64,000 nucleotides of DNA, taken from assembly GCA_003451585.1 (NCBI GenBank), contig DMEU01000011.1, positions 29,493 to 93,492 of the forward strand, in the 5' to 3' direction. The first letter of the stretch is position 1, and every line of letters begins with the position of its first letter. Positions 26,838-46,626 of this stretch are shown here, one piece after another. The notes beneath the pieces are model-generated. The model saw only the letters and a program-made list of their open reading frames with translations. It was not told the origin of the DNA and did not search any database. Made by a program: the position numbers and the translations under genes. This DNA is from Candidatus Omnitrophota bacterium (GTDB taxonomy: Bacteria; Omnitrophota; Gorgyraeia; Velamenicoccales; Velamenicoccaceae).

Positions 26838-26851
26838 TCGGCGAAGGACAT

Positions 26852-27379: not shown

Positions 27380-27383
27380 GCGT

Positions 27384-27887
27384 ATGCTAAATTTCGCAAA
27401 TATTCTAAAAAAAATAATTTTTTTGTGTTTTCTTATTTTTATAACTAGCTTGGCTGTGGCTGAAGATGCCAGCGTAACGCTTCCAGGAGACGGTAAGGCC
27501 GTTGCAGAAGCACCTGTTACGGAGGCTCGGGAGGAGGCACAGGATGAAGACAGAATGGATTTCAGGGATCCTTTTAAGACTTGGCTGCCTTCAAAAAAAG
27601 ACAGGGATGTTGTTATTGACAGGTTTGAAGATGGATATGGCGAACCTGCCGGAGATCAAGGCGGAGAAGAATTTGATTATTCCGGCCTGGATGTTACCGG
27701 TATAGTTTGGGGGGAGGCAATGCCAAAAGCTATAATCAATGATGAGGTGTACGGCATAGGAGACCAGGTGAACGAGGCCACCATAATGAATATTAATAAA
27801 GACGGGATCCTGCTAAAATTCAAAGATAAGGAGTATCTGATGAAGAGAGGAAAAGAGAATATTTCAGAAAAAGGAGGGGGAATATGA
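27384..27887 (+). CDS. PilP/GspC-like periplasmic protein
   Basis: Signal peptide and an acidic linker. The C-terminal GIVWGEAMPKAIINDEVYGIGDQVNEATIMNINKDGILL resembles the PilP/GspC HR domain. Confidence 0.45.
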   Translation: MLNFANILKKIIFLCFLIFITSLAVAEDASVTLPGDGKAVAEAPVTEAREEAQDEDRMDFRDPFKTWLPSKKDRDVVIDRFEDGYGEPAGDQGGEEFDYSGLDVTGIVWGEAMPKAIINDEVYGIGDQVNEATIMNINKDGILLKFKDKEYLMKRGKENISEKGGGI

Positions 27888-29398: not shown

Positions 29399-29432
29399 CG
29401 GCAAACAAGAACTTTAATGTCTTGAGTATATT

Positions 29433-31145: not shown

Positions 31146-32389
31146 TGCCGAAATATTCGTATATCGGACGTAAGTTGAGCGGTGAAAAGGAGACCGGTAT
31201 CATAGAAGGGCCCGGACAGGACGATGTCGTAGCCCAGCTTCAGAAGAAGGGGCTTATCGTTACATCGATCATCCCTTTCGATCTGGGCAAAAAAGAGATG
31301 ATGCCGGCAAAAGAAGGAAAGGCAGCAAAGAGCCAGTTCACCCACAATGGTATAAATGCAGGCGACCTGGTCCTTTTCGCGCGCCAGCTTTCGATGCTTT
31401 TGGGGTCAGGCATAAGCTTGTTGAGGTCTCTTGACGTCATATCAAAACAGGTTGATAGTAAAAAACTCTTCAATATTATCGCCCAGGTGCGGTTGGATAT
31501 GGAAGGCGGCAGGACGCTGCGTGATTCGATAGCAAAATTCCCGGAGGTCTTTTCGCCCTTATGGGTAAATCTCATAGAGACCGGTGAGGCGAGCGGTAAC
31601 CTCCCCATGGTCTTAGATAAGCTCGCGTATTATCTTGAAGAAGCGGAAAATTTCAAACGAAAGATCATCTCGGCGATGATGTATCCGGGTATATTGTGTT
31701 TTATCTCGGTATCGGCAGTCCTCTTTTTCATAATGAAGATCATCCCTACATTTTCGAAAATACTGGATTCTTTCGGCGTTGAATTACCGATGGCTACGAA
31801 GATATTGATAATGTTGAGCGAGGCGTTGACAAAAAGGTTCCTGTGGATCGTAGCAGGGGTTGCCGGCTTGGTCTTTGCGTACAAAAAAATGAGCAAGGTG
31901 TCGAAATTCAACAGGATCATCGAAGACGCGCGTTTTAAAATACCTATCGCCGGCGAATTTTTCAGGTATATGCTGATTGAACGTTTTGCCACCACGATGT
32001 CCATATTGATCGAAAGCGGCGTGCCTATCCTTTATGCGTTAGAGATCTCTGAGCGCAGCGCGGGCTCCATGAAGATGTCTGAGACCATACAGTTCATCAA
32101 AAGGAGCGTCAAGGAAGGGCGCAGTATGGCCGCGCCCATGGAAAAAAGCGATATATTCACCCCTATGGTGGTGCAGATGGTGGCAATAGGCGAAGAGATC
32201 GGTGAATTGTCTAATATGTTAAAAAGGATCGCGAAGTTCTATCAGGAGTATCTGGAGACCTTTGTATCGCGCCTTGCCTCTATTTTCGAACCTTTGATGA
32301 TAGTCTTTATGGGTATTATTATAGGAGGGATGGTCATAGCTATATTTTTGCCGATATTTAATATGGCGGCCATGAAGACATCCGGTTAG
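31145..32389 (+). CDS. pilC: type IV pilus/T2SS platform protein (PilC/GspF family)
   Basis: Two GspF repeats, three TM segments and ~410 aa. ATG overlaps the pilB stop. Confidence 0.9.
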   Translation: MPKYSYIGRKLSGEKETGIIEGPGQDDVVAQLQKKGLIVTSIIPFDLGKKEMMPAKEGKAAKSQFTHNGINAGDLVLFARQLSMLLGSGISLLRSLDVISKQVDSKKLFNIIAQVRLDMEGGRTLRDSIAKFPEVFSPLWVNLIETGEASGNLPMVLDKLAYYLEEAENFKRKIISAMMYPGILCFISVSAVLFFIMKIIPTFSKILDSFGVELPMATKILIMLSEALTKRFLWIVAGVAGLVFAYKKMSKVSKFNRIIEDARFKIPIAGEFFRYMLIERFATTMSILIESGVPILYALEISERSAGSMKMSETIQFIKRSVKEGRSMAAPMEKSDIFTPMVVQMVAIGEEIGELSNMLKRIAKFYQEYLETFVSRLASIFEPLMIVFMGIIIGGMVIAIFLPIFNMAAMKTSG

Positions 32390-32418
32390 TTGACTTAACT
32401 AATGTAATATGATATATT
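32390..32418 (+). promoter_or_regulatory. sigma70-type promoter for the major pilin gene
   Basis: TTGACT (32390-32395), 17-nt spacer, TATATT (32413-32418), then a ~95-nt leader ending in an AAGGAGGGGG Shine-Dalgarno sequence. Confidence 0.6.
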
Positions 32419-32517
32419 TATAATAAAGGAGGTGGTGTTTTAATTATTGAGGCATCATATTAAAATATATAAATAAGAGTAAGAAAAAATAAAACAACCA
32501 ATAATAAGGAGGGGGAA

Positions 32518-32922
32518 ATGAGAAATAAGAAAGGTTTCACGCTGCTTGAACTTATTATCGTGGTAATCGTAATAGGTATCTTAGCTTCCATCGCTCTGCC
32601 TAGGTATTTGAAGATCGCGGAAAAAGGCAGGGTCGCGGAAGGTAAGTCCCTTTTGGGCGCCATCAGGAGCGCGCAGATGAGGTATTCCGCAGAAAAAGGC
32701 GCGTTCGCAACTACTACAGGTGACTTGGATTTGAACATGCAGACGGCAAGGTATTTTACCATGTCAGTTCCTAGCTCTGGCGGTTCAGTATCTGTTGAGA
32801 CGACCGTTGTTGCAACAGCCACAAGAAACACCGTTGATAACCCTTCGCCGGGATGTATATATAATATCACCCAGGCAGGTGTTATGTCGAACAACACAGC
32901 CGCTTGCGGAGGCTTTTTATAA
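32518..32922 (+). CDS. type IV pilin (probable major pilin), prepilin-type N-terminal methylation domain
   Basis: MRNKKG|FTLLELIIVVIVIGILASIALPRY class III signal with Glu+5, two C-terminal Cys, and its own promoter and terminator. Confidence 0.88.
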   Translation: MRNKKGFTLLELIIVVIVIGILASIALPRYLKIAEKGRVAEGKSLLGAIRSAQMRYSAEKGAFATTTGDLDLNMQTARYFTMSVPSSGGSVSVETTVVATATRNTVDNPSPGCIYNITQAGVMSNNTAACGGFL

Positions 32923-32941
32923 TTTTTCGCAAGAATACTAT

Positions 32942-32997
32942 TGCCCTGGCAAGCGCCTTTTGAATACATTCAGGTTTTTGCCAGGGCATTTTGGTTT
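32942..32997 (+). terminator. intrinsic terminator after the major pilin gene
   Basis: tgccctggcaa (32942-32952) pairs with ttgccagggca (32978-32988), followed by ttttggttt. Confidence 0.65.
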
Positions 32998-33009
32998 GTG
33001 TAGAATCTT

Positions 33010-34005
33010 ATGATAAGGTTAGCATGCGTCTTGACGACTGAATGCAATTTGAGGTGCTTGCATTGTTTAAGGGACAATGCAGCAGCGAGTCATTTGCCGC
33101 TTGAGATCGTAAGCAAGGCTGTGGCAGGGGCAAAAAAATTTGATCTAGAGTATGTTCATTTGACCGGCGGAGAGCCTTTTCTGTATCATCATTTGCCGGA
33201 ACTTTTTGAATTACTCAAACAGAGTAATGTCCAGGCGACTTTTTCATCTAATGGCCTGCTCTTTGAAAAAAGATCCGAACTGATAACTAAATATAAAAAA
33301 GTCATCAGATTCATTAATATAAGCCTTGACGGTCCTTGTGCGGATATCCATGATGCCACCAGAGGAAAAGGGGCTTTTGGCGCGCTCATGGAGTCTTTTA
33401 AATTTTCAAGAGCGCATAAACTCCCTTTTGGCGTTACCTGTTGTTTAAACAGGTTCAATCTCAGCCACGCGCCGGACATCGTCAAATTCGCCAGGCGGCA
33501 AGGCGCTAAACACATTAATTTTTCTACCGTCCTGCCCTGCAGGAATGCCGAAGAGAACGGCCTTGTCTTAGATGAGGCCCAGAGGAAAAAGGCGTATGGT
33601 GAATTGCGACGTCTAGCCTATGTCTCTTCCATGGATTTTTTCAGGTTATTTTATGTGCCTGTCTTTATAAGCGAGCCCGTGTACGCTTCAAGCAATATAG
33701 TCATGTGCGCCAATCAGTCGTTGCGTACGGTGACTGTCGATGTGGATGGAAGCCTGCACTTTTGTTGTTTTCTTACTGTTTATGACGTGGACAAGGAAGT
33801 TGAAAAAGGGTTGAAGGTAGCAAATCTTTGCGATGTTGATTTTGAAGAAGGGCTTAAATGTTTCGCGGATATGATACATAGTTTTATCCGCGGGCGGATG
33901 GATGATTATCAAGGCGGTTCTTTTGATAAACAGGGTATGGATTTTAACAGCTGTTTTTATTGCAATAAAAAATTGGGCATAGCCTTAAAGGTAGGGCCGT
34001 TATGA
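33010..34005 (+). CDS. radical SAM enzyme with SPASM/twitch-like C-terminal Cys-rich domain
   Basis: C12-x3-C16-x2-C19 (CNLRCLHC), GGEP motif, C-terminal C-x13-G-x4-C (CANQ...DGSLHFC) and a CxxC (CFYC). The stop overlaps the start of the next pilin (ATGA). Confidence 0.85.
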   Translation: MIRLACVLTTECNLRCLHCLRDNAAASHLPLEIVSKAVAGAKKFDLEYVHLTGGEPFLYHHLPELFELLKQSNVQATFSSNGLLFEKRSELITKYKKVIRFINISLDGPCADIHDATRGKGAFGALMESFKFSRAHKLPFGVTCCLNRFNLSHAPDIVKFARRQGAKHINFSTVLPCRNAEENGLVLDEAQRKKAYGELRRLAYVSSMDFFRLFYVPVFISEPVYASSNIVMCANQSLRTVTVDVDGSLHFCCFLTVYDVDKEVEKGLKVANLCDVDFEEGLKCFADMIHSFIRGRMDDYQGGSFDKQGMDFNSCFYCNKKLGIALKVGPL

Positions 34006-34400
34006 ACAAAAAGGGTTTTTCTCTGATCGAGGTCATAGTGGTCGTGATCATCATTGGCATCCTGGCAAGGATAAGCATACCTCGTTATATCCGCCTGGTC
34101 GAGAAAGGCAGGTCAGCGGAGGCGCGTAATATTTTAGGGCATATACGTTCGGCACAAATGGCTTATCAGCTTGAGAATGGTTATTATACCAATACCCTTG
34201 GTAATTTACAGGTTGCGGCACCTACGGCTTGTAACGCGACTTTTTATTTTAGTTACGCGTTGGCGAACGGCAGCGGGACTTTTACGGCTACAGCAAACAG
34301 GTGTACTGGGGGTGCAGGGAAATCACCCACTGGTTCGGCAGCATTCAGCTTATCTATTAACCAGGGCGGGACGCTAAGCGGTACGGCCGGTTATCTGTGA
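34002..34400 (+). CDS. type IV pilin paralog
   Basis: MNKKG|FSLIEVIVVVIIIGILARISIPRY. It is a paralog of the pilin at 32518 through the alpha-1 helix and has two Cys (C-x23-C). Confidence 0.88.
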   Translation: MNKKGFSLIEVIVVVIIIGILARISIPRYIRLVEKGRSAEARNILGHIRSAQMAYQLENGYYTNTLGNLQVAAPTACNATFYFSYALANGSGTFTATANRCTGGAGKSPTGSAAFSLSINQGGTLSGTAGYL

Positions 34401-34406
34401 GGTTTC

Positions 34407-34817
34407 ATGAAGAAACTAATTCGCGCGATAGATGATCTTTCGGGTTTTACCCTGATCGAATTGGTTGTGGTGGTCATTATTATGAGCATCCTTGTCGCGT
34501 TAGCCGTACCGACTTATACCAATACCAAGGAGAAGGCGTTGGATAAAGAGGCTGTAATGGCGTTAAAGCTTATACGGTCTGCCAGTAAACAGTACTTTGC
34601 GAAATTTGAGCATTTTTATCCATATACCGGCTCAATCACTTCTTTGTCTAATATAAATAACAACCTTAGCCTGGATCTGAGCGGCTCGAATTGGGGGTTT
34701 GCTCTTAGCGGCACAGGAACGGCCTTTACGGCGAACGCAACCAGGACAGGCAGTACAAGAAGGTGGACAATAAATCAGGCCGCGTCGGAGCCGTCGTGTG
34801 TTACAGCCTGTCTGTGA
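34407..34817 (+). CDS. type IV pilin-like protein
   Basis: ...DDLSG|FTLIELVVVVIIMSILVALAVPTY, with a C-terminal CVTAC. Confidence 0.85.
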   Translation: MKKLIRAIDDLSGFTLIELVVVVIIMSILVALAVPTYTNTKEKALDKEAVMALKLIRSASKQYFAKFEHFYPYTGSITSLSNINNNLSLDLSGSNWGFALSGTGTAFTANATRTGSTRRWTINQAASEPSCVTACL

Positions 34818-34831
34818 TCTCTAAAGATGAT

Positions 34832-35206
34832 ATGAGAACCAGAGGTTTTACTTTGGTTGAGGTAATGGTGGCCGCGATCATCCTGGCCCTTTTGGCAGCC
34901 GGGCTCTTTAGTGTTTTCGCTTCTGCCAGGAACCTGGTTTCCCGTTCTAAAAGAAGGCTTGTGGCAACTGAGATAGCTAAAGCCGAGATCGAGAAAAACA
35001 AGCAGCATATCAGGGCGGACAGATGGGATAATGTTTCATATCCTGCTGTTTATCCGGCTAATGGAGTCTGGCGTTCCTGCGCCTCGGCCGCGTATACATA
35101 CCAGGGCATTACTTATAATGTTGATTGCCGCGTAGACCCCGGTCCGACAGCCGATTCTTACAGAAAAGTAACTGTTCGCGTGAGGTGGAATGAACCTACG
35201 ATCTAG
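34832..35206 (+). CDS. minor pilin/pseudopilin (PilV/GspI-like)
   Basis: MRTRG|FTLVEVMVAAIILALLAAG. The in-frame ATG at 34832 gives a canonical prepilin leader; the ORF start at 34763 overlaps the previous gene. Confidence 0.8.
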   Translation: MRTRGFTLVEVMVAAIILALLAAGLFSVFASARNLVSRSKRRLVATEIAKAEIEKNKQHIRADRWDNVSYPAVYPANGVWRSCASAAYTYQGITYNVDCRVDPGPTADSYRKVTVRVRWNEPTI

Positions 35207-35723
35207 CAATGATGGTGTTACTTTAATAGAACTTATCCTTGCGATGGTCTTAGTCGGTGCCATCATCATGACCGGCCTGTCTATGGAGCTTGGCCTCAGG
35301 CGTATTTATTCATCGACTGATTTTGAAGTGCATTTGTTGGATGAGGCAGCTCCGATAATGGCGATGGTGACCAAGGATATAAACAGGGGCGTCGGAGCGG
35401 TAGCAACGGCTCAATCCCCGTTTAGCGGGACTTATAGGATATATTATGATTCCAATTTTAACGGTATGCGGGATGCGGCAGATACTGCTGTTGAGTATCA
35501 GTATAATAGCGCCACATATAATCTTAATTACAGGCGCACTTTGAGCGGGCCGTGGCAGCTTTTATCGGATAAGGTCACCAGTTTTAGCATAGCTGCTCCG
35601 GTCAACGGCGTTTCCACATTTTCTATCAGCCTTAAAAGATCCCCGTCTTTAGGCACAGGTTATACTAATCCGCAGATAGCCGTAACTTCAAGCGCGCAGT
35701 ACAGGGGATATTCTATAAATTGA
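35190..35723 (+). CDS. minor pilin/pseudopilin (PilW/GspJ-like)
   Basis: ...SNDG|VTLIELILAMVLVGAIIMTG prepilin-type N-terminus. Confidence 0.75.
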   Translation: MNLRSSNDGVTLIELILAMVLVGAIIMTGLSMELGLRRIYSSTDFEVHLLDEAAPIMAMVTKDINRGVGAVATAQSPFSGTYRIYYDSNFNGMRDAADTAVEYQYNSATYNLNYRRTLSGPWQLLSDKVTSFSIAAPVNGVSTFSISLKRSPSLGTGYTNPQIAVTSSAQYRGYSIN

Positions 35724-35855
35724 TGGGGGATGATGCGCGAAGCGCAAAAATCATCCCCAAGGGGTGATAGCGAAGACTTTGCGACGAATAGGAGTAAAGT
35801 CGCAGCGCAAGAGGGGCGTAAGCCCCTATTGATCAGGGGTTTGGGGATGATTTTC

Positions 35856-35928
35856 GGGGCAGTAGCTCAGCTGGGAGAGCATCACGTTCGCAACGTGGGG
35901 GTCGTGGGTTCGAATCCCATCTGCTCCA
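35856..35928 (+). tRNA. tRNA-Ala (anticodon CGC)
   Basis: Hand-folded cloverleaf: acceptor GGGGCAG/CTGCTCC with a G3:U70 pair, D arm GCTC/GAGC, anticodon loop TTCGCAA, T arm GTGGG-TTCGAAT-CCCAT. No CCA is encoded. Confidence 0.9.
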
Positions 35929-36041
35929 CTGATTTTTTTAAGAAGACAAGCTGGGATTCGAAGCCGACCCGAGCGCCACTGGTTCAAGCGAGGGCGGCCG
36001 GCCACGAAGGAGCCCCGACGGATGTCGGGGCGGGTGAGTGG

Positions 36042-36059
36042 GAATCCCATCTGCTCCAC
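36042..36059 (+). repeat. 18-bp direct repeat of the tRNA-Ala 3' end (35912-35929)
   Basis: gaatcccatctgctccac is identical at both sites. Here it is followed by 'cacc', and the intervening 112 bp are visibly GC-rich. Confidence 0.85.
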
Positions 36060-36091
36060 CACCTTAATATAGTAGAATAGCGCAGCGGTAA

Positions 36092-37183
36092 ATGAAAAAA
36101 TACGGGTTGTTTTTTACTTTTATCTTTGCGGCCGCCTGTTTTATTTTCCTGCCTGTGGTCTTTTCCGGCGATGTGTTGCATGAAGCAAGTTTTTACTTCA
36201 AGCTCGATAATAAACAGGTAAATTGCGTGCTTTGTCCCCGCAGGTGTGTTATCCCTGACGGAAGGCGCGGTTTTTGCGGGGTCAGAGAGAATAGGGGAGG
36301 CACGCTCTATTCTCTGGTCTATTCCAAGCCATGCGCGGTCCACATCGACCCTATAGAGAAGAAACCTCTTTTTCATGTCTTGCCCGGTTCGACCGCTTTT
36401 TCTCTTGCGACAGTAGGTTGTAATCTAAGGTGCAAGTTCTGTCAGAATTGGCAGATCTCGCAGGCCTCTCCGGAAGATGTGGTACCTCTTGACCTTTCTC
36501 CGGAGGAGGTGATCAGACATATCAAGGAAAGCGGCTCGCCGGTGATAGCATATACATATACCGAACCTACCGTATATTACGAATACATGTTCGATATTGC
36601 AAGGCTTGCGCGCGCAGCCGGTATAAAGAATGTCATGCATTCAGCAGGTTTCATAAACGAGGAGCCTCTGCGTCGGCTTTGCCCTTACCTGGACGCGGCC
36701 AATATTGACTTAAAGGGTTTTAATAACAGGTTCTATTCTGAGATGACGCTTGGAAATGTCGACGATGTGCTGCGCACGCTTGTGGTCTTAAAAGATGAGG
36801 GTGTCTGGACCGAGATAACCAACCTTATCCTGCCCGGGCTAAACGATGACGCGCAGGAGATAAGGAGGATGTGTTTATGGATACGCGACAATCTCGGGCC
36901 GGATACGCCGGTCCATTTCACTCGCTTTACCCCGCACTATAAACTTATGAACCTTTCCCCCACTCCGGTCCAGACGCTTATTATGGCTAGAAGAATAGCG
37001 CGGGAGGCCGGCTTAAAATACGTGTATCTTGGCAATATTTCCCACACCGATGCCGAGGACACTTTTTGCCCGAAATGCGGAAAGCCGGTCATAGAGAGGG
37101 CAGGCTATGTCATAACGGCAAATAATGTCGTAGAAGGCAAGTGTAAGTTCTGCGGAGAGAAGATAAATGGCATCTGGAAATAA
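36092..37183 (+). CDS. AmmeMemoRadiSam system radical SAM enzyme
   Basis: CNLRCKFCQNWQISQ cluster motif of the PFL-activase-like AmmeMemoRadiSam subfamily. Adjacent to Memo/AMMECR1. Hydrophobic N-terminal segment. Confidence 0.85.
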   Translation: MKKYGLFFTFIFAAACFIFLPVVFSGDVLHEASFYFKLDNKQVNCVLCPRRCVIPDGRRGFCGVRENRGGTLYSLVYSKPCAVHIDPIEKKPLFHVLPGSTAFSLATVGCNLRCKFCQNWQISQASPEDVVPLDLSPEEVIRHIKESGSPVIAYTYTEPTVYYEYMFDIARLARAAGIKNVMHSAGFINEEPLRRLCPYLDAANIDLKGFNNRFYSEMTLGNVDDVLRTLVVLKDEGVWTEITNLILPGLNDDAQEIRRMCLWIRDNLGPDTPVHFTRFTPHYKLMNLSPTPVQTLIMARRIAREAGLKYVYLGNISHTDAEDTFCPKCGKPVIERAGYVITANNVVEGKCKFCGEKINGIWK

Positions 37184-38687
37184 GTGTAAAGTTAAAAGTG
37201 TAAAGTTTAAAGTAAATTTTAATATTATAAAGTACCTGATCTTATTATTTGTCTTTACACTTTACACTTTACACTTTACGCCATTTTGTGCTACTGAAAA
37301 TGTAAGAGTAAAGGAGCCTAATGTTGCCGGGACTTTTTACCCGGATGATAAGGCCGAGTTATCCGCATTGATCCGGAAATATGTCCGTCAGGCGAAAGGC
37401 GCGCCCGTTGGCGGCAAGCCGGTGGTCCTTATCGCACCTCATGCAGGATATATATATTCCGGCCCCGTTGCCGCTTATGGATACGCGACCATCGAAGGCA
37501 TGTCGTTTGATACGGTTATCATACTTGCTGCATCCCATTATTTTTCATTTAAAGGTGCCTCTGTCTATAAGGAAGGGTCTTTCCGCACTCCCTTAGGTGA
37601 TCTTGCGATCGATACTGCCCTTGCTTCTGAGCTGTTGTCCTTAGATTCTGAACTTTTAATTTTTAAACCAAACTATTTTGAACAGGAGCACTCCCTGGAA
37701 GTGGAGCTGCCTTTTTTGCAGGAGGTTTTAAAGCCCGGTTTTAAGATCCTGCCCGTATTGTTCGGCGATCTGTCGTATGAGGGTTGCCTTGCACTGGCGA
37801 AATATCTGGCCGGAGTAACCGAAGGAAGAGATGTCCTTGTTGTGGCCAGCACAGACCTGTCTCACTACAGGCCTTATGGAGAAGCGTTAGTCTACGATAA
37901 AAAAACCATCGATCATATCAAAAACTTCGACACAAGGGGATTGTGGGATGCCGTGGCAGGGACGGGATGGAATGTATGCGGCATAAAACCCGTTGTAACA
38001 GGCATTGAATTCGCAAAAATTAAAAACGCAAAAAGCCTTAATGTATTGAAATATGCCAATTCCGGAGATACAGCAGGAGGAAAAGACCGGGTCGTGGGTT
38101 ATACAAGTATCCTTATCAGTAAGGAGGAAGGAATGTTCAAAAGAGAAGAAAAAAGGCGCTTGCTTGAGATCGCAAGGCGCACGATAGAGACCCAAGTGAG
38201 AGAGGGTAAGGCCCCGGCCCTTGAGGGAGAGTGCCCTGCCTTGAGCGCGCGTTGCGGCAGTTTTGTAACCCTGCGCAAGAAGGGCGAACTCAGGGGCTGC
38301 ATCGGCAGATTCACCTCGGATGAGCCGTTATATAGTGTCGTTTCACAGATGAGCATAGAATCCTGCACCCATGATTACAGGTTTTCTCCTGTGACCGCCG
38401 ATGAGCTTGACGATATCACGATCGAGATCTCGGTCTTGACCGAGCCTGAGCTTATAGAGGATTGGCACAGGATCAGGTTGGGGGTTGACGGAGTGATCAT
38501 ACGAAAGGGCTATTCCAGCGGTGTTTTCCTACCGCAGGTAGCGGTTGAAACAGGGTGGGACCTGGAGATGTTCTTGGGCCAGTTATGCTTTCAGAAGGCA
38601 GGATTACCCAGTGATTGTTTTAAGGACCCTGAAACGAAAATCTACACCTTCCAGGCCGAAATTTTTTCAGAAGACGGCCTAAAATAA
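37167..38687 (+). CDS. fused AmmeMemoRadiSam protein B (Memo) + protein A (AMMECR1)
   Basis: Memo half: VAGTFYP, APHAGYIYSG, DLSH. AMMECR1 half: LRGCIGRF. The only in-frame start is the ATG at 37167, overlapping the radical SAM gene. Confidence 0.85.
   Translation: MASGNKCKVKSVKFKVNFNIIKYLILLFVFTLYTLHFTPFCATENVRVKEPNVAGTFYPDDKAELSALIRKYVRQAKGAPVGGKPVVLIAPHAGYIYSGPVAAYGYATIEGMSFDTVIILAASHYFSFKGASVYKEGSFRTPLGDLAIDTALASELLSLDSELLIFKPNYFEQEHSLEVELPFLQEVLKPGFKILPVLFGDLSYEGCLALAKYLAGVTEGRDVLVVASTDLSHYRPYGEALVYDKKTIDHIKNFDTRGLWDAVAGTGWNVCGIKPVVTGIEFAKIKNAKSLNVLKYANSGDTAGGKDRVVGYTSILISKEEGMFKREEKRRLLEIARRTIETQVREGKAPALEGECPALSARCGSFVTLRKKGELRGCIGRFTSDEPLYSVVSQMSIESCTHDYRFSPVTADELDDITIEISVLTEPELIEDWHRIRLGVDGVIIRKGYSSGVFLPQVAVETGWDLEMFLGQLCFQKAGLPSDCFKDPETKIYTFQAEIFSEDGLK
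37182..37279. repeat. 7-nt-unit hairpin (gtgtaaa/gttaaaa/gtgtaaa/gtttaaa ... ctttaca x4) inside the 5' end of the Memo-AMMECR1 ORF
   Basis: The right arm is a perfect (ctttaca)4 tandem array. The left arm is complementary in units of gtgtaaag. Confidence 0.8.
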
Positions 38688-38698
38688 AATTTGATATT

Positions 38699-39358
38699 AT
38701 GCTAAGAGTAACCGCCAGCCTGTTTTTTACCGGTTTAGTATTGGGGTACGGGCCTTGCCTTTTAAGCTGCGGCCCGCTTCTTGTCTCGTATATAACCGCT
38801 ACAAAAAAAAGCGGGATTTCCGGCCTTAAGGTATATCTTATTTTTTCAGCTACGCGCCTGTTCGTTTATCTTGTCTTCGGTATACTTGTAGGGCTATTCG
38901 GTGAGAGGCTGCTACATCGTCTTTTTGAAAGTTCCGCTCTTGCTCTTCTTTTTCTTCTTTTCGGCGGATTTCTAGCTGTACTTGGGGCGCTTATTATGAG
39001 CGGGAAAAGCGATATAGAGAACAAGTGCAGCAGTTTTATCCATCGATATGTTGAGCCGGAGGGCATAAAAAATGTTATAATTTTTGGGTTAGTGGTTTCT
39101 TTGTCACCTTGTCTGCCTCTTATGGGTGTATTGGGCTTTATTGCCTTGCTTTCAGATACATGGGCAAAGGGGGCAATGTATATGTCCGCATTCGCATTCG
39201 GCACTATTGTAAGCCCATTGATAATTTTATCCGTTACTGCCGGATGGGCTGCGCGACATTTGAGCAGGCACAGTAATATCATGCGGATAGTCAGGCTTAT
39301 TTGCGGCTTTATGATATGCCTTTTAGGTATTAACCTTATTTGGAGCGGCTTGAGATGA
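38699..39358 (+). CDS. DsbD_2/TauE-like polytopic membrane protein
   Basis: Six TM segments, with GPCLLSCGP and SPCLP Cys motifs in TM1 and TM4 as in CcdA/DsbD-type transporters. Confidence 0.5.
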   Translation: MLRVTASLFFTGLVLGYGPCLLSCGPLLVSYITATKKSGISGLKVYLIFSATRLFVYLVFGILVGLFGERLLHRLFESSALALLFLLFGGFLAVLGALIMSGKSDIENKCSSFIHRYVEPEGIKNVIIFGLVVSLSPCLPLMGVLGFIALLSDTWAKGAMYMSAFAFGTIVSPLIILSVTAGWAARHLSRHSNIMRIVRLICGFMICLLGINLIWSGLR

Positions 39359-40166: not shown

Positions 40167-40194
40167 TTGACAAAAATCACTTCTGAGGTAAACT
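40167..40194 (+). promoter_or_regulatory. candidate promoter of the fimbria-like cluster
   Basis: TTGACA (40167-40172), 16-nt spacer, TAAACT (40189-40194). Confidence 0.4.
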
Positions 40195-40249: not shown

Positions 40250-41701
40250 ATGACCGTTTCCGCAAAAAAAGCCTTTTTCGCCTTTTTATTATTTGCGTCT
40301 CCTTTTTTCTTTTCCTTGTCTCTTCCTTTATCGGCTTTCGCAGTATTTAATTTGACAGCTGCCCCTGAAAGCGGCGGTTTTGACTTGCGTTTTACGCGCG
40401 TATCGCCAGGTGATTTTAAGCAGGCCAGGGAGGTAACTTTAAGGATCAACTCCGATATAGGTAAGCAATACCGCGTTGTACAGCAATTGATCAAGCCTCT
40501 ATCTATGATGGATGGTACACAAATACCGGATGGGCAGTTTAAGATGTATCCTTTGGTCAACTCCAATAGCCAGGGTACCTTGCTCTACCGCGAAGAAACA
40601 CCGGTGAGTTCTTATAACACCGTGCTTTATACCTCTAACCCTGCAGGAAGCAATGATTCGTTCAAACTGGTCTATACTATAATACCTTTTGAAACACAGA
40701 TCCCCGGCTCTTATCACGGCCGCATATCTTACATATTGCAGCCGATCGATTCAACCGAATCCCAGGTCGTCGTCACATTAAATATCTACGTCGATATGGC
40801 CGCAGGCACAACCCCCGTAATTGAGGTGACGGCCAGTTCTGTTTCAGGACGGATCAGCTTAACGTCGGAGGGGATGACCCCTAAGGATCCTTTTGGGCCC
40901 AAGGAGAATCCCAGGGTATCTATAAAAGTCCATTCTCCTATGGGTGCCACGTATCGTATATATCAGGGGTTGCAGAGTAATGCTGTTGTTTCCGGCAGCG
41001 GTGATGAGTTCGATCTCTCTAAGATATCGTTTACTGTTGACGGCGGCAATAACGGTGTCGCGGCCAGGCAGGGAGACCTGAAAGGGGCTCAAGTAAGGCA
41101 GCTTTTGTATACATCTGATGGATTTGGGGCGCCGGATGAATTTGTGGTCACATATAAGCCATCAAAGGATTTCCGTCTGCAAAAAGCGGATCTCTACAGG
41201 GGAAGGCTTGTTTTTACTGTGGAGAAGGCCACTGACGCGGCTCCGCTGTCTATTAAAACACTGGACATGGAAGTGGATATCGAGCCGGTCTTTGATATCC
41301 ACGTCTACTCAGGCGGGAAGGAAGGCGTCTTTCTAAGATTTGGAGAGATAAGCTATAAGACCGGCCCTAAGTCATCCGATGTTGAGGTCTTCGTAGAGTC
41401 GAACATGGGCAGGCCTTATCAGGTGGTCCAAAAGGTGTCAGGGCCTATGATGAACGAGGCCGCCGATAAGATACCGGAGGAGGATTTTGTTGTCAGGGTC
41501 AAGGACGTGGATCACCAGCAAGAGGCCGGTTTTAGTTTAAAAGATGAGGCGCGCGTAACTGAAGGCGATACTGTGATATTTGCCTCAGGGCCTAAAGGGC
41601 ATAGCGCCAGTTTTACCGCTGAATATAAGCTGACATTGCGGCCGGATTCAAAACCCGGGAATTATTCTACGCAGATAGGTTATTCCTTAGCTTTGAATTA
41701 A
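40250..41701 (+). CDS. secreted protein made of three tandem ~150-aa beta-rich domains (fimbrial-subunit-like)
   Basis: Signal peptide ...LSAFA. Each domain repeats the motifs G.xYR/QVVQ, LLYTS / VLYTS / VIFAS and a terminal G.Y.G.I.Y.L strand. Confidence 0.7.
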   Translation: MTVSAKKAFFAFLLFASPFFFSLSLPLSAFAVFNLTAAPESGGFDLRFTRVSPGDFKQAREVTLRINSDIGKQYRVVQQLIKPLSMMDGTQIPDGQFKMYPLVNSNSQGTLLYREETPVSSYNTVLYTSNPAGSNDSFKLVYTIIPFETQIPGSYHGRISYILQPIDSTESQVVVTLNIYVDMAAGTTPVIEVTASSVSGRISLTSEGMTPKDPFGPKENPRVSIKVHSPMGATYRIYQGLQSNAVVSGSGDEFDLSKISFTVDGGNNGVAARQGDLKGAQVRQLLYTSDGFGAPDEFVVTYKPSKDFRLQKADLYRGRLVFTVEKATDAAPLSIKTLDMEVDIEPVFDIHVYSGGKEGVFLRFGEISYKTGPKSSDVEVFVESNMGRPYQVVQKVSGPMMNEAADKIPEEDFVVRVKDVDHQQEAGFSLKDEARVTEGDTVIFASGPKGHSASFTAEYKLTLRPDSKPGNYSTQIGYSLALN

Positions 41702-41728
41702 AAATTAAAAAGAAGGGGGGTGAATATA

Positions 41729-42466
41729 ATGAGAAAAAGACTATTAGTGTGGGCAGTCGTGTGCGCGTTGGCTGGGCTTGATATGGCTCCGGTGTATGCG
41801 CAGACATCTGCTACTGGTCCAAGTGGTGCGGCATCGGCTACTGTGCCTCAGGTTTTAGAATTCACATTGAGCCGTGTCGTGAGAATGAATTCAGCGGCTG
41901 GAGATACCAATCCCTTTACTCAGGGTACGGTATTGACGTCGCCTTCATTTAATTTCGGCACTTTGGCTCGCGTGAATGATGCCGAGGGTAACTTCTTATA
42001 CATGCGCGGTGAATACTACTACTATATTCTAATGATCGCGGCTACATCAGGCCGTAGATATAAGATAACCGAAACCGGCACTCAGTTGACCGGACCAGGA
42101 GGCGTGTTATTGCCGAAGGAGTCTGTGTTATTGGTCCCTGATTATCAGTGGTTGGATACATTGGGTACTGTGGCGCAGGGAGCTCCTCCAGGGAACGCGT
42201 CGGTAGGCCCGGTTGCATCCGCTTCTAATACCGGATCACTCGTTTATCAGAGTGATACCGCTGGTTTAGGCAGGCTGGTGAGGTCAGTGATCGCGATCAG
42301 CGGTCCTGGCGCAGGTTCTGCTTATCCTTCTAACTACAGCCTTGGTTTTAACGGGGCTGTCGGGCAGGGGGCAAAGCAGGAATATACAGCTTGGAAGGCT
42401 ATAACTCCTGATCAACCGTCAGGCGCGTATAGCGGCACCATAACGTTTACTTTGGTATTGAATTAA
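41729..42466 (+). CDS. secreted single-domain paralog of the 40250 protein (fimbrial-subunit-like)
   Basis: Signal peptide ...APVYA. Motifs FNFGTL, RRYKITE and SLVYQSD, with C-terminal PSGAYSGTITFTLVLN matching PGNYSTQIGYSLALN. ATG at 41729 after AAGGGGGG. Confidence 0.7.
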   Translation: MRKRLLVWAVVCALAGLDMAPVYAQTSATGPSGAASATVPQVLEFTLSRVVRMNSAAGDTNPFTQGTVLTSPSFNFGTLARVNDAEGNFLYMRGEYYYYILMIAATSGRRYKITETGTQLTGPGGVLLPKESVLLVPDYQWLDTLGTVAQGAPPGNASVGPVASASNTGSLVYQSDTAGLGRLVRSVIAISGPGAGSAYPSNYSLGFNGAVGQGAKQEYTAWKAITPDQPSGAYSGTITFTLVLN

Positions 42467-42475
42467 TGTAGACGG

Positions 42476-42523
42476 TTTTTTTGGCAGCAGCTTCGTCTTT
42501 TGGCGAGGCTGCTGCCAAAAAAG
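42476..42523. other. strong stem-loop between the subunit and chaperone-like genes
   Basis: ggcagcagcttcg pairs with cgaggctgctgcc (13 bp, one G.U). A T7 run lies 5' and an A6 run 3' of the stem. Confidence 0.75.
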
Positions 42524-42531
42524 GAAAACAT

Positions 42532-43383
42532 ATGAATATTAAAAAAATCTATAGTTGTCTGGTACTATCCGTACTCATAAATATATTTTTTACTACATTT
42601 TCTTGGGCAGGGCTACGCATTGATAAGCCAAAGGTCCGGCTCAATATCGCACCTGCGAGCTATGACAGCGGAGAGGTAAAAGTCGAAAATACCGGCGGAG
42701 AGGTTTTAAGCGTTAAGGTGTATCTTGAAGATTGGGTATATGCACAGCAGGATGGCGGGAAGACCTTTGCCCCTAAGGGGACCAATGCTTTATCTTGTTC
42801 GGATTGGATAACCTTTTATCCGGCAGATTTTACTTTGGCGGCCAATGATTCGCGGATAGTGCGTTATACGGTAAAAGTCCCAAAGGATGCGCGGGGCGGG
42901 CATTATTCGGTAATGTTCTTTGAGACCGGTGGTGAGGATATCGAAACGCCGAATGAGGAAGGGACGACTGTGCGTATAAAGGTATTGAACCGGCTTGGAG
43001 CCCTCTTTTATATAGAGCCGGAAGGCACTATCAAGAAGGCCGCAGAATTGAAAAATCTTGGACTAATACATAAACTCAACGATCTGATTGTATCCGCCGA
43101 TCTTGTCAATTCGGGGAATACGGATATAACGGCCGGCGGAACGTTCAATATAATAGATAAGGAAGGTTTTGTATATGCGCGCGGCGCGTTCGACGAAGTA
43201 TATACTTTGCCCGGCGATAAAGCGGCGCTTCGTTCCGTGGCCGCATCTACGAGTTTAAAACCCGGCACTTATGATATCCTTATAACATTGGATTTTCAGA
43301 ATGGCGGTACGCTTGTGCATGAATCCCAGTTCGATATCTCCGCAGACGGCGCTATCTCCCTATCGGCAGTGCAAGCACAATAA
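42532..43383 (+). CDS. periplasmic two-domain Ig-like protein, PapD-like chaperone candidate
   Basis: Signal peptide. First domain pattern: VRLNI..ASYDSGEVKVENTGGEVLSVKVYLEDW ... FTLAANDSRIVRYTVKVPKDARGGHYSVMFFET. A second beta domain follows. ATG at 42532. Confidence 0.5.
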   Translation: MNIKKIYSCLVLSVLINIFFTTFSWAGLRIDKPKVRLNIAPASYDSGEVKVENTGGEVLSVKVYLEDWVYAQQDGGKTFAPKGTNALSCSDWITFYPADFTLAANDSRIVRYTVKVPKDARGGHYSVMFFETGGEDIETPNEEGTTVRIKVLNRLGALFYIEPEGTIKKAAELKNLGLIHKLNDLIVSADLVNSGNTDITAGGTFNIIDKEGFVYARGAFDEVYTLPGDKAALRSVAASTSLKPGTYDILITLDFQNGGTLVHESQFDISADGAISLSAVQAQ

Positions 43384-43418
43384 TAGCTTAATTGATGTAA
43401 GGAAAAAAATAGGAGCGT

Positions 43419-46301
43419 ATGTTGGGATTTTATAAAAAAATTTTAGTGACTTATTTAATCTTTTTAATAAGTTTCAATATTATTTTTCCGCCGGACGTAT
43501 GTTATGCATCGGTCTCTCCGCAGATAGGAGATTTTTTTTGCCAGAGGGGTATATCCTATTTTGATCAGGGCAAGTATCCTCAGGCAAGCGTAGAGTTTAA
43601 AAAGGCGCTTCTGGCCAATCCGGAATCCGCAATCGCAAAAAAATATATTTTGTTGATCGAAGGCGGGCCTGCGGCCGTACAAAATGATCAGATGTCCGTC
43701 CTGGGCAGGAAAATCTCCGAAGTAAATTCCGCCTTGAGCCAGCATGAATTCATCTCAGACCAGATATCCGTTTTCGCTATGCCGCAACAGGATGGAGATA
43801 GCACGTCTGTGTTTGAATTTCAGGAAGAGGTCGCGTTAAAAAGATCTCAAAGCAAAAAGAAACAAGCTTATAAAGAGATCATGCGCCAGCCTGCAGGAGA
43901 GGCCTTGCCGCAGGAAAAGGTAGTTGTCGATATAAATATTAAAGACGAAGGCAGGGATTTCCTGGAGGTAGGGACGAATGTGGGCGAACACCTTATTCTA
44001 AAAGGCAGGAATATCTCGAGGTTCCTTATTACCGATCCCGGTCTTATAAAAGTTTCTTTGGATGGTAATTCTGCTGTTTTGGCCCAGCTTTTGGAACCCG
44101 GCACCACCTATATCCATATTTGGGATGAAGGGCAGCGCAAGACCTTAAAATTCATGATAGGCCAGAGGAAGCTCGATCAACAGTATTTAGAGGCCCAAAA
44201 GGAGAAGGCGTTAAAGGCCAGCCTTCCTGAGCCATTTAAGGTCAGTTATTCGATAGAAGGGGATTCTTTTATGTCCGGCAGGGGGTTCGGCGACCTTGAG
44301 CGGAAAAATTATACCATCAACTATAGTTCATCAATTATCGGAGAGACGCCATACGGTAACTTCGATACATCTGTGCAGGCGGACCGCACTCAGTCAAAAA
44401 AATACCATGTCTCGAACCTGCGTATGGGCCTGACAGGCGCGCATTATGACGAGTTCAAGGATATCAATCTGCGGTTTTTTGATTTCACCCCGGCTATAAC
44501 TAATTTTGGTTTCCCTACATCTGATCTCCGCGGCGTGATGATGGATGCCCCGATGTTTGAAAAACGCGTTAATTACACGGCTTTTTGGGGCGCGATCCCG
44601 TTCGGTGATTTTACAAGGCTTTCTTCGACCTCCGGCCTTGACAGGACGAAGGAGGCGTGGCTCGAAGGTATATCCGTTAATTACAAGCCGTTGGATTTTG
44701 CCAATTTCAAGGCGTTCTACGCGCACTCGTATGGCCCGGAGAGGACACAGCCTGTTTTAACCGACGAGGTCAGGGGTTTTGGCATGGATTATAATCTTGG
44801 AAGGTTTAACATCAGTTCCGAGATGGTGCAGGATCCGGACAATATCTCATATACCGCCAATTCTAGCGTTACATTTTCAAAACTCCGCATTGGCCTGACC
44901 ATGACAGAGAATAATAAGGACTTCGCTTCCGTCTTGGGCGGCATACCTTCAAGCGGCTCGACGAGCGGTACGTTGACTACGACTTACAGGCCGGCACAGG
45001 ATGTCACCATATCGAATACTTTTTCCGGCACACGCGATAAGGTCTTTGGTAACCCGGATAGGCCGGCCAGGCCGAATTACAATTCGGATACACGCCTGAA
45101 TTGGGTGATCGACCCGCATACTGAATTTGAAATGTCCTATGGGCTGGATGATCAGATAGGCTCGAATTCTCCGGCGGTCACAGAGACCAAGGAAGTTACC
45201 CTGCGCAAGAAGCTGTTTTTCTTAAAAAAACTTAACACATTCGTGAGTTATCAGAACAGAAAGACAAAGAATTATACATCTCCTGCCCAGGATTTTAATA
45301 ATAATCGTATATTGGCCGGGCTTAGTTTCAGGGTGGTCAGCGAACTATACGCTTACTGGCGCAGGGAATTCAATATGCTGCATAATAAATTTTCAAATGA
45401 AGATGCCTTCCCTACGGCACAGGAAATAGGCCTCAATTTTTACAAGCAGATATTCGATACGCCTTTTTACCTGAATTCCAGGCTCTATTACCGCGACGAG
45501 GAAAATACGGAGTCTACTTTGAGTTTTTTGAGCGGCGAGGACCGCTTGGAGGGCGAGAGCGAGTTGACATTTAAGCCGAACCCGGATACCGAGACATTCC
45601 TTAAGGTCAGGCTGTCGAATATATGGGCTGAAAAAGCAGGTGTTGCCAAGCACCTGGATTTTGATTTTACTTTTGGCGTAAGGTTGGTTTGGGACACCGG
45701 CCTGCGCTGGCGATCCGTTGGAGGTTTTTACGGATATTGTTTCTATGATATTAACGCCGACGGTAAAAAGCAGCCGGATGAACACGGAGTAAAGGGGGTC
45801 GGGATCATCGGCCCTGCAGGCAAGCAGGTTGTTACGGATGAAAGGGGATATTACAAGATCCCTTCGGTTACAGGGAAGAAGGCCCTTTTAGAGATGAGTG
45901 TCAATACATTGCCTAAGGGGTATAATCCGACTACCTCAGTTTCACGTGAGGTGGATATAGTGCACGGGAAGGCCAAAAGAGTGGATTTCGGGATTGCCAC
46001 AAGGTCTGAGATCTCAGGGCTCATCTATTATGACAAAAACGCCAACGGACAGTATGATTCCGGGGATGAACCGGTCAAGGGTGTTGTGATCACACTTGAT
46101 GATAAGGAAAGAGCGGCGAGCAGCATAATGGGCGAATATATGTTTAGAAAGCTCTCGCCCGGTGAACATACCTTGAGGCTCGACCTAAAGTCCATCCCTG
46201 TAGAGTTTATCCCTAAGGTAGCGGTTGCGAAGTCATTGAAGGTCATCGAAGGCACGACCTTTGTTTATAATATACCGTTAGAAAAAGCGGCGGAAAAGTA
46301 A
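43419..46301 (+). CDS. 960-aa outer-membrane protein: TPR + CpaC-type pilus N-terminal domain + putative beta-barrel + two SdrD-B-like domains
   Basis: The signal/anchor is followed by a TPR segment, then LEVGTNVGEHLILKGRNISRFLITDPGLIKV...GTTYIHIWDEG (secretin-N 'pilus formation' pattern). A long alternating beta-strand region rich in Y/F-x-N/S/T comes next. The C-terminus has YYDxNxNGxxDxxExxxxGV repeats. Confidence 0.55.
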   Translation: MLGFYKKILVTYLIFLISFNIIFPPDVCYASVSPQIGDFFCQRGISYFDQGKYPQASVEFKKALLANPESAIAKKYILLIEGGPAAVQNDQMSVLGRKISEVNSALSQHEFISDQISVFAMPQQDGDSTSVFEFQEEVALKRSQSKKKQAYKEIMRQPAGEALPQEKVVVDINIKDEGRDFLEVGTNVGEHLILKGRNISRFLITDPGLIKVSLDGNSAVLAQLLEPGTTYIHIWDEGQRKTLKFMIGQRKLDQQYLEAQKEKALKASLPEPFKVSYSIEGDSFMSGRGFGDLERKNYTINYSSSIIGETPYGNFDTSVQADRTQSKKYHVSNLRMGLTGAHYDEFKDINLRFFDFTPAITNFGFPTSDLRGVMMDAPMFEKRVNYTAFWGAIPFGDFTRLSSTSGLDRTKEAWLEGISVNYKPLDFANFKAFYAHSYGPERTQPVLTDEVRGFGMDYNLGRFNISSEMVQDPDNISYTANSSVTFSKLRIGLTMTENNKDFASVLGGIPSSGSTSGTLTTTYRPAQDVTISNTFSGTRDKVFGNPDRPARPNYNSDTRLNWVIDPHTEFEMSYGLDDQIGSNSPAVTETKEVTLRKKLFFLKKLNTFVSYQNRKTKNYTSPAQDFNNNRILAGLSFRVVSELYAYWRREFNMLHNKFSNEDAFPTAQEIGLNFYKQIFDTPFYLNSRLYYRDEENTESTLSFLSGEDRLEGESELTFKPNPDTETFLKVRLSNIWAEKAGVAKHLDFDFTFGVRLVWDTGLRWRSVGGFYGYCFYDINADGKKQPDEHGVKGVGIIGPAGKQVVTDERGYYKIPSVTGKKALLEMSVNTLPKGYNPTTSVSREVDIVHGKAKRVDFGIATRSEISGLIYYDKNANGQYDSGDEPVKGVVITLDDKERAASSIMGEYMFRKLSPGEHTLRLDLKSIPVEFIPKVAVAKSLKVIEGTTFVYNIPLEKAAEK

Positions 46302-46308
46302 TGGCGGC

Positions 46309-46626
46309 CTATCTTGCGCAGACGGTGTAAATGGTAGTTTTTTGTTCGTCAGTCGTATTTTCTGCTAAGACCATATTCTCTTGGCTAGTGATGAGTTTTT
46401 GTTCTTCCTGGATGTCATAATCGCCGGATGCGCCCATGGCCACAGGGGCCTGTGGAGTTTGTGGCGTGTTTGTGGTAGCAGGCGCCTGAGCCCTGATTTC
46501 CAATAACTGCGGCATGATACAGCTGGCAGTCCCGCTGATAGTCGTCCCCCCAGCCAGACATACATTGACCGGAATAACACAGACCAGGGTCAACAGTGAT
46601 ATTAAGGTAGGTCTCTTTGCCTTCAT
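46309..46626 (-). CDS. small secreted protein under c-di-GMP riboswitch control
   Basis: The only convincing minus-strand ORF. Signal peptide MKAKRPTLISLLTLVCVIPVNVCLA, GAGGG Shine-Dalgarno sequence 5 nt upstream, and location directly downstream of the riboswitch/terminator. Confidence 0.7.
   Translation of the reverse strand: MKAKRPTLISLLTLVCVIPVNVCLAGGTTISGTASCIMPQLLEIRAQAPATTNTPQTPQAPVAMGASGDYDIQEEQKLITSQENMVLAENTTDEQKTTIYTVCAR

Follow-up and report, generated by a model that had tools for sequence, protein, structure and literature searches.

A conserved five-gene cluster of Omnitrophota that may encode a highly divergent, ATPase-free chaperone-usher-type pathway

A 64,000-nucleotide (nt) stretch of DNA from a Candidatus Omnitrophota bacterium, hereafter called the window, contains a cluster of genes for secreted and outer-membrane proteins, which we named g1 to g5. 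A highly divergent pathway of the chaperone-usher type is, in our view, the probable function of the cluster, at roughly 60%; it would export beta-sandwich subunits across the outer membrane without an ATPase and would probably polymerise them. The specific roles proposed below for g1, g2 and g5 were held with less confidence than this overall reading. Four genes lie on the + strand. They encode a secreted subunit with three homologous beta domains (g1, 40250..41701, 483 amino acids (aa)), a secreted single-domain paralog of the g1 domains (g2, 41720..42466, 248 aa), a chaperone-like, predicted periplasmic protein with two immunoglobulin (Ig)-like domains (g3, 42532..43383, 283 aa) and an usher-like outer-membrane protein (g4, 43419..46301, 960 aa). 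The fifth gene, g5 (46309..46626, - strand, 105 aa), encodes a secreted protein and is convergent to g4. A first-pass annotation of the same DNA had described a four-gene set that resembled a divergent chaperone-usher pathway. The four open reading frames (ORFs) were real, and the resemblance was supported by the folds of g3 and g4 and by the co-conservation of the genes. The set was not complete at four, since the conserved g5 makes it five.

The fold of g3 was compared with known structures. The AlphaFold2 model had a predicted local distance difference test score (pLDDT) of 93.7 and showed two tandem beta-sandwich (Ig-like) domains. The last two strands of domain 1 were very long (aa 124-140 and 146-163) and made up the F1-G1 hairpin (aa 124-163). 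The top Foldseek matches were structures of WxLIP of Enterococcus faecium, free and bound to long WxL (9i25_C and 9i1y; E 4e-12). They were followed by chaperones that included YadV, CupB2, Caf1M, FimC, CfaA, CsuC, EcpB and DraB at E 1e-9 to 1e-7, and the Foldseek probability was 1.00 for the first seven of these. About 40 chains of chaperone-usher chaperones were found among the matches. The highest template modelling (TM) scores were obtained with CfaA (0.48/0.62), then with CsuC, FimC and Caf1M. These results agreed with the earlier description of g3 as a two-domain Ig-like protein whose first domain has a strand pattern common in PapD-type chaperones and related surface-assembly proteins.

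The sequence of g3 gave a similar picture. The family profile matched the EcpB chaperone marginally (E 1.3e-3), with the alignment over the F1-G1 region, and StbB was matched marginally by 3 of the 49 g3 orthologs. Weak, below-threshold matches to WxLIP_PGBD were observed in 21 of the 49. No Pfam or NCBIfam model exceeded its threshold with g3. Sequence and fold together put g3 no further from the Gram-positive WxLIP family than from PapD. In the PapD cleft, the basic residues Arg8 and Lys112 anchor the subunit carboxylate. K34 in the first strand of g3 was nearly invariant, and R154 in the last strand of domain 1 was invariant and aligned with an Arg of EcpB. A C-terminal hydrophobic or membrane helix was absent from both the sequence and the model, and g3 was therefore taken as a soluble periplasmic protein. 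Some Joint Genome Institute (JGI) records of g3 orthologs carry the label PapD chaperone. Automated annotation has thus already caught this one part of the system.

The first-pass description of g4 as a large outer-membrane protein was consistent with its AlphaFold2 model, which was a large beta-barrel protein with a pLDDT of 81.6. In the model, the signal peptide is followed by a TPR at aa 34-81 and a disordered stretch. Next come a small beta domain (aa 167-248), which corresponds to PF13629, and a helix; the barrel has 26 DSSP strands at aa 274-759, and two SdrD_B-like beta-sandwiches (aa 767-956) form the C-terminal part. Foldseek places 1 to 17 were all FimD/PapC ushers (E 3e-20 to 5e-10, 540-780 columns), the best of them at E 3e-20 to 1e-15. 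The next barrel classes, AlgE and TonB-dependent, appeared at E ~1e-9. The usher matches stood about ten orders of magnitude ahead of the other barrels and took in the domains at both termini. In ushers, a plug is inserted between strands 6 and 7 of the barrel; the equivalent place in g4 is occupied by a highly conserved short hairpin and loop (aa 357-413). Family models detected TPR, PF13629 and two C-terminal SdrD_B/CarboxypepD_reg-like domains in g4. PF13629, the N-terminal domain of Cpa/Rcp-type secretins, was found in 34 of the 36 g4 orthologs (best E 3e-11).

The architecture of the putative subunits was obtained from profile comparisons. An hhalign self-comparison of g1 gave three tandem homologous domains at aa ~31-166, 186-326 and 346-483 (E 1e-25 to 1e-33), and g2 was homologous to these domains (probability 97%, E 8e-11). 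This was as the first-pass annotation had read the two proteins, namely three tandem beta domains and a single-domain paralog. It had also noticed a terminal G-x-Y strand and an F-x-F-G-x-L-like motif, and both were conserved in the g1 and g2 orthologs. The terminal G-x-Y-x-G strand was near-invariant (G235, Y237 and G239 in g2; G470 and Y472 in g1) and was followed by alternating hydrophobic residues at the domain end. The F-G-x-L motif was conserved near the domain start, where F79 of g2 was invariant and L82 near-invariant. Domain 3 of g1 and the single domain of g2 terminate directly after the G-x-Y strand. The C-terminus of g1 lay exactly 11 residues past the terminal-strand Tyr in 231 of 234 distinct orthologs, and that of g2 lay 9-13 residues past it. 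Such a fixed C-terminus would be expected if the C-terminal carboxylate docks in the chaperone cleft.

The two proteins differed at their N-termini. Mature g1 opens with the first domain strand and has no N-terminal extension. In mature g2, the equivalent of this strand is preceded by one additional N-terminal strand (consensus t-I-n-V-t-A-t-V-P), in the segment TGPSGAASATVPQVLEFT (41813-41866, + strand). In g1, an extra alternating-hydrophobic strand follows domain 1 and another follows domain 2. The first linker strand (SQVVVTLNIYVDMA...; 40748..40801, + strand) lies between domains 1 and 2, and the second (LSIKTLDMEVDIEP; 41237..41284, + strand) between domains 2 and 3. The g1 profile was searched against the sequences of solved structures, and the sole match was 3f83, at a marginal E of 3.4e-4. 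The structure 3f83 is an engineered CfaE-CfaB fusion that is complemented in cis by a donor strand. In the HMMER alignment, the linker strands of g1 were paired with VEKNITVTASVDP, the donor strand of CfaB, and the G-x-Y strands with AGQYMGNI and AGNYSGVV. We regard this marginal alignment as a possible lead on architecture, short of a proof of homology. Single-sequence searches of the solved-structure sequences with g1 and g2 gave nothing usable.

Known subunit families gave weak matches at most. CPR_Pam_pilin_C (NF058581) is the donor-strand-accepting domain of the Pam pilins of the candidate phyla radiation (CPR). It was matched by 31 of the 49 g1 orthologs at E <= 1, with a best score of ~20 bits (cut-off 55) and a best E of 1e-4. 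In the g1 of the window, the alignment to this model was limited to about the last 55 residues. DUF4402 (PF14352) was matched by 5 of the 39 g2 members, all below threshold (best E 0.0023), and the one match that was inspected covered profile positions 108-127 of 129, or about the last 20 residues. SCPU (PF05229) gave no match among the g2 members. The likeness to SCPU/DUF4402 subunits suggested by the first-pass annotation held at the level of the motif and did not extend to a domain-length match. The WxL domain (PF13731) was not found in g1, g2 or their families, and the profiles missed the WxL chain of 9i25. Weak matches to ExtJ were discarded as uninformative. With the g1 profile, HMMER retrieved 498 proteins at E <= 0.001 from a set of 1.84 billion representatives. 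The 150 of these that were listed were all orthologs, mostly full-length, and no bridge from g1 to another family was seen among them.

The fifth gene lay outside the region delimited by the first-pass annotation. Its stop codon is 7 nt from that of g4. At least 52 of the 69 loci with a complete g4 contained g5, with a median stop-to-stop distance of 21 nt. The consensus starts with a signal peptide and continues with G-d-s-x-s-x-x-v-S-C-t-I-P-a-i-P-G-v-N-a-P, an E/Q/A/T-rich middle and a C-terminal y-T-x-Y-s-R (conserved ..Y-x-R/K). In the window, the mature N-terminus TTISGTASCIMPQLLEIR (46492-46545, - strand) resembles the g2 segment TGPSGAASATVPQVLEFT, and a g2-only profile retrieved g5 proteins through their N-termini. 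Anchored 18-mers of g5 and g2 N-termini scored 13.8 within the same locus, 5.6 across loci and -10 after shuffling. For the clade of the window, g5 scored 11.3 against g2 inside the clade and -1.2 against g2 of other loci. The anchoring of the 18-mers creates part of the general similarity between g5 and g2, but not their co-variation, which we deduced from the clade-specificity of the similarity. As judged from sequence, g5 appears to have the N-terminal strand of the g2 type but no domain of that type. We rejected a lipoprotein or type V pilus mechanism, since the conserved Cys of g5 is not preceded by a lipobox and none was found in g1 or g2.

Two other genes were observed near the position of g5. 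In 24 loci, for example at L025:4152-4391 (-), g5 has a conserved ~80-aa gene (QRVVTFLNRxEVDFLDKLGKDALFS...) upstream of it on its own strand. This gene was missing from the window and the clade of the window, gave no Pfam match and might encode a small regulator for the system. At L064:11687-12241 (-), a 184-aa single-domain g1/g2-like protein ending in GDYSALLTYTVSVL occupies the usual place of g5.

Conservation was examined in 79 species-level loci, in which the ORFs were assigned with hidden Markov models (HMMs). The order g1-g2-g3-g4 was near-universal. The variant g2-g1-g3-g4 was found in 5 of the 79 loci, others carried extra g2 copies, and 9 of the 79 had extra g2-g3 pairs. These pairs are adjacent, with up to three per locus (L033, L034, L037, L038, L046, L050, L052, L057 and L069), which suggests that they are cognate subunit-chaperone pairs. 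Homologs formed 180 clusters for g3, 98 for g1 and 58 for g4, the last figure omitting one weak partial match. In Ca. Velamenicoccus archaeovorus, g1 to g4 and the surrounding housekeeping genes were syntenic with the window, the shared order being AmmeMemoRadiSam, DsbD_2, rsmE, the cluster, recA, recX and alaS. In one distant relative, g1 to g4 occurred together in a different neighbourhood. Because the order or a close variant recurs in 79 loci and in varied neighbourhoods, the gene set was regarded as a conserved functional module and not as a chance arrangement. The first-pass annotation had named the four-gene order in related genomes as a check, and the order was indeed co-conserved. In addition, an extra 1098-aa gene lies between g3 and g4 in one relative, at L002:8828-12124 (+), on the contig to which L039 also belongs. 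It contains ILEI, GH2_C-like and TSP3 repeats and could encode a cargo protein or accessory adhesin.

The distribution pointed to one class. All seven genomes that were found in the table of Seymour et al. belonged to class Velamenicoccia (GTDB Koll11) and represented four orders. Nearly all g3 homologs carried an Omnitrophota label, and an identical copy of g4 is on record under Candidatus Omnitrophica. A few related loci were labelled Elusimicrobia, Margulisiibacteriota or Planctomycetia, and these labels could not be verified. The bacteria of this class, in which the cluster is conserved, are ultra-small and probably predatory.

An assembly scheme can be proposed on this basis. Sec would carry all products over the inner membrane. 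In the periplasm, the long F1-G1 hairpin of g3 would cap a presumed open groove in g2 and in the last domain of g1. The complexes of g3 with its subunits would then be taken up by g4, with its periplasmic N- and C-terminal domains, and the subunits threaded outward. The linker strands would complete domains 1 and 2 of g1 in cis, each for the preceding domain. We propose g1 as the tip subunit because it has no N-terminal extension and its domains 1 and 2 would be self-completed in cis. With an N-terminal extension and the presumed open groove, g2 would be the major subunit and may polymerise through donor-strand exchange into a fibre, the existence of which we infer. With its g2-like N-terminal strand and no acceptor domain, g5 might act as a donor-strand-only terminator or anchor of that fibre, by analogy with PapH and FimI of the classical systems and PamR of the Pam pili.

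The co-duplicated g2-g3 pairs, the synteny in varied neighbourhoods and a GC content like that of the flanking DNA were counted in favour of the chaperone-usher reading. Several results weighed on the other side. The TM-scores of g4 against ushers were low (0.26-0.46), its barrel had ~26 DSSP strands instead of the 24 of ushers, and the insertion of an ~80-aa plug domain was not seen in the barrel model. None of 36 g4 orthologs matched Usher (PF00577), PapC_N (PF13954) or PapC_C (PF13953) at E <= 1, and none of 49 g3 orthologs matched PapD_N (PF00345) or PapD_C (PF02753) at the same cut-off. No ortholog matched the fimbrial-subunit, SCPU or WxL models of Pfam/NCBIfam at E <= 1, and no pilin was found with the g2 profile among the solved-structure sequences. 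Against CfaB, single g1 domains and g2 aligned over the last two strands only (E > 20), and homology of g1/g2 to CFA/I pilins is for that reason not claimed. The duplication of g2 and g3 as pairs could also mean stable 1:1 complexes and not a promiscuous chaperone. Among the solved-structure sequences, the g4 profile likewise found no usher. Because of its low TM-scores and the lack of an obvious plug insertion, we call g4 usher-like and do not count it as a member of the usher family. Two kinds of check proposed earlier came out differently. Foldseek of the g3 and g4 models pointed to chaperones and ushers, and the HMM matches to PapD_N, Usher and SCPU did not appear. This was in line with the first-pass statement that none of g1 to g4 belongs to a characterised family, as no HMM threshold was reached.

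The WxLIP likeness of g3 raised the possibility of a static surface complex without a fibre, which would be the diderm equivalent of the Firmicutes WxL/WxLIP clusters. In such a complex, g3 would be a stoichiometric partner with its hairpin inserted, g4 an export or anchoring pore, and g1/g2 an adhesin platform. WxLIP, both free and bound to long WxL, headed the fold matches of g3, and WxLIP_PGBD was weakly matched by 21 of 49 orthologs where PapD_N was matched by none. The duplication of g2 and g3 in pairs would also fit. WxL clusters share the layout of a small protein, a large multi-domain protein and one WxLIP (PMC10599100). However, g3 has no C-terminal membrane helix of the kind that defines WxLIP, and searches of g1 and g2 revealed no WxL domain. 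The bacterium is a diderm whose operon encodes an usher-like pore. The N-terminal extension of g2 and its mimic in g5 are also easier to explain by strand exchange between subunits. We therefore consider the static complex unlikely, although it is the strongest of the alternatives.

The weak matches of g1 to CPR_Pam_pilin_C, the only recurrent NCBIfam match (31 of 49 members), suggested a distant diderm relative of the CPR Pam pilus. There, g1 would be the major pilin and its inter-domain linkers would be donated in trans. Pam pilins are multi-domain and donate linker strands, and the system has PapD-like chaperones (bioRxiv 10.64898/2026.03.03.709456). Against this, the best g1 members reached ~20 bits under a cut-off of 55 bits, and the g1 of the window aligned over only about its last 55 residues. 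The Pam chaperones are membrane-anchored, the Pam system lacks an outer-membrane pore, and its pilins were found in CPR only (bioRxiv 10.64898/2026.03.03.709456). This relationship seemed improbable to us, more so than the static complex. Very improbable is a generic outer-membrane channel, in which g4 might, for example, export polysaccharide as a TPR-porin or work in uptake, with g1 to g3 as unrelated beta-sandwich proteins of the periplasm or the surface and the chaperone-usher likeness convergent. TPR does stand at the N-terminus of g4 as in PgaA, BcsC and PelB, AlgE and TonB-dependent barrels are among its fold matches and no usher HMM matches it, but the ushers led those barrels by about ten orders of magnitude, with matches that reached into the N- and C-terminal domains, the loci inspected contained neither a polysaccharide synthase nor a TonB-related gene, and the strict co-conservation of four genes argues against unrelated functions.

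The layout of the locus was also examined. Genes g1 to g4 look like one operon, because they share the + strand and neighbouring ORFs are separated by gaps of 18-65 nt. The likelier start of g3 is the ATG at 42532, while the ORF listing has a TTG at 42481. The g1 form conserved among orthologs is the 483-aa ORF with a signal peptide; the public call by JGI is 398 aa and begins at an internal Met. Signal peptides on all four proteins had been noted in the first-pass annotation. They were recognised again as a positively charged N-terminus, a hydrophobic segment and an A-x-A-like site in each sequence, and the hydrophobic segments formed helices in the models (aa 3-23 in g3, aa 2-22 in g4). The absence of an ATPase, sortase or secretin core, also noted earlier, was reproduced by a family-model scan of the cluster genes, in which g4 did carry PF13629. 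A candidate promoter had been noted in the first-pass annotation as well. A sigma-70-type site TTGACA-16-TAAACT (40167..40194, + strand) with 10 of 12 consensus matches is present in the 170-nt gap downstream of an rsmE-like gene. Such sites were not enriched over shuffled sequence (16 observed, 10.2 +/- 3.0 in shuffles), and the promoter is therefore a candidate only.

The genes upstream of the operon were also inspected. Directly upstream, at 36092-39358 (+), lie AmmeMemoRadiSam genes (a radical SAM gene followed by a Memo-AMMECR1 fusion) and a gene for a DsbD_2-like membrane protein. A complete type IV pilus or type II secretion-like cluster is located at 25221-35723 (+), ~4.5 kb upstream of the operon. 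It includes PilM_2, a secretin (27884-29398), a T2SSE ATPase (29433-31145), a T2SSF platform protein (31145-32389) and several N-methyl pilins (34002-35723). A tRNA-Ala (anticodon cgc; 35856-35929, +) lies between this cluster and the AmmeMemoRadiSam genes, and two ORFs that overlap or flank it (35730-36080 and 35984-36376) are probably spurious. A link between the pilus cluster and g1 to g4 was rejected, because a tRNA gene and housekeeping genes intervene and because other neighbourhoods host g1 to g4 in more distant relatives. The pilus cluster is treated as separate. An origin as a mobile island was rejected as well, since the GC content of the cluster is the same as that of the flanking DNA and synteny is kept with V. 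archaeovorus.

The uncultured, ultra-small Omnitrophota are believed to live as predators or parasites. To date, only Tad pili, type IVa pili and giant proteins have been considered in discussions of how they attach (PMC10066038). The system described here was not mentioned in the Omnitrophota literature examined. A fibre system of this kind, ATPase-free, conserved and inherited vertically, would add a new candidate to the means of contact with host or prey. It would also extend the chaperone-usher principle to a phylum in which HMM-based annotation misses it. Possible mechanistic variants include multi-domain tips complemented in cis, a strand-only terminator and an usher with secretin- and SdrD-type accessory domains.

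We compared the cluster with known systems. The subunits share the C-terminal strand motif a-G-x-Y-x-G-x-v-T-v-T-l with DUF4402/SCPU-type proteins. Only 5 of 39 g2 members matched DUF4402, below threshold, and SCPU was unmatched. The Pam pili (PamA/B pilins, PamC/D chaperones, PamT, PamE and PamR) were represented by the weak but recurrent match of g1 to the pilin C-terminal domain. PamR gives an N-terminal strand only and is proposed as terminator and anchor, and it would be analogous to g5. Unlike the Omnitrophota cluster, the Pam system lacks an outer-membrane usher and has its chaperones and PamR anchored in the inner membrane, and it is reported as exclusive to CPR. The WxL/WxLIP system (DUF916-DUF3324; PF06030 / PF11797) of Lactobacillales and Bacillales provided the best fold match of g3 and its recurrent weak match, WxLIP_PGBD. 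The cluster logic agrees in that a small single-domain protein is combined with a large multi-domain one that has this domain at its C-terminus, and with a two-Ig-domain partner that inserts a hairpin into the shared domain. In the Omnitrophota cluster, by contrast, g3 lacks a transmembrane anchor and no WxL domain could be detected in the subunits. The operon, in a diderm host, includes an outer-membrane pore, and attachment to peptidoglycan is not implied.

The cluster was also compared with the chaperone-usher pili, above all with their alternate (class 5, CFA/I) and archaic (Csu) branches. These pili need no ATPase for assembly, as proposed for the cluster. Their periplasmic two-Ig-domain chaperone is matched by g3, with the highest TM-score for CfaA. 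FimD/PapC was the best fold match of g4, which has a periplasmic N-terminal part and two C-terminal beta-sandwich domains. A C-terminal G-x-Y-x-G-x-hydrophobic strand is common to the subunits. An extension-free multi-domain subunit (the tip adhesins CfaE, FimH and PapG; here g1) stands beside a single-domain one with an extension (g2). The cluster departs from these pili in having no HMM-level similarity to the PapD_N/C, Usher or fimbrial subunit families. The modelled g4 barrel has ~26 strands and no obvious plug insertion, and g4 carries TPR and secretin-type PF13629 at the N-terminus and SdrD_B/CarboxypepD_reg-like domains at the C-terminus. The putative tip g1 has three homologous domains, apparently cis-complemented, and a separate small protein, g5, is little more than a donor strand. 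The host belongs to Omnitrophota and not to Proteobacteria. The system may connect the chaperone-usher, WxL/WxLIP and Pam assemblies. Tentatively, as one possibility that we would not favour over its opposite, it could be a deep-branching link between WxL/WxLIP complexes, the CPR Pam pili and the proteobacterial chaperone-usher pili, marked by a WxLIP-like chaperone combined with an usher-like pore, a natural three-domain cis-complemented tip and the strand-only terminator g5. If this is true, donor-strand fibre assembly would be ancient and spread over many phyla, and the fibre would be a core host- or prey-attachment organelle of class Velamenicoccia.

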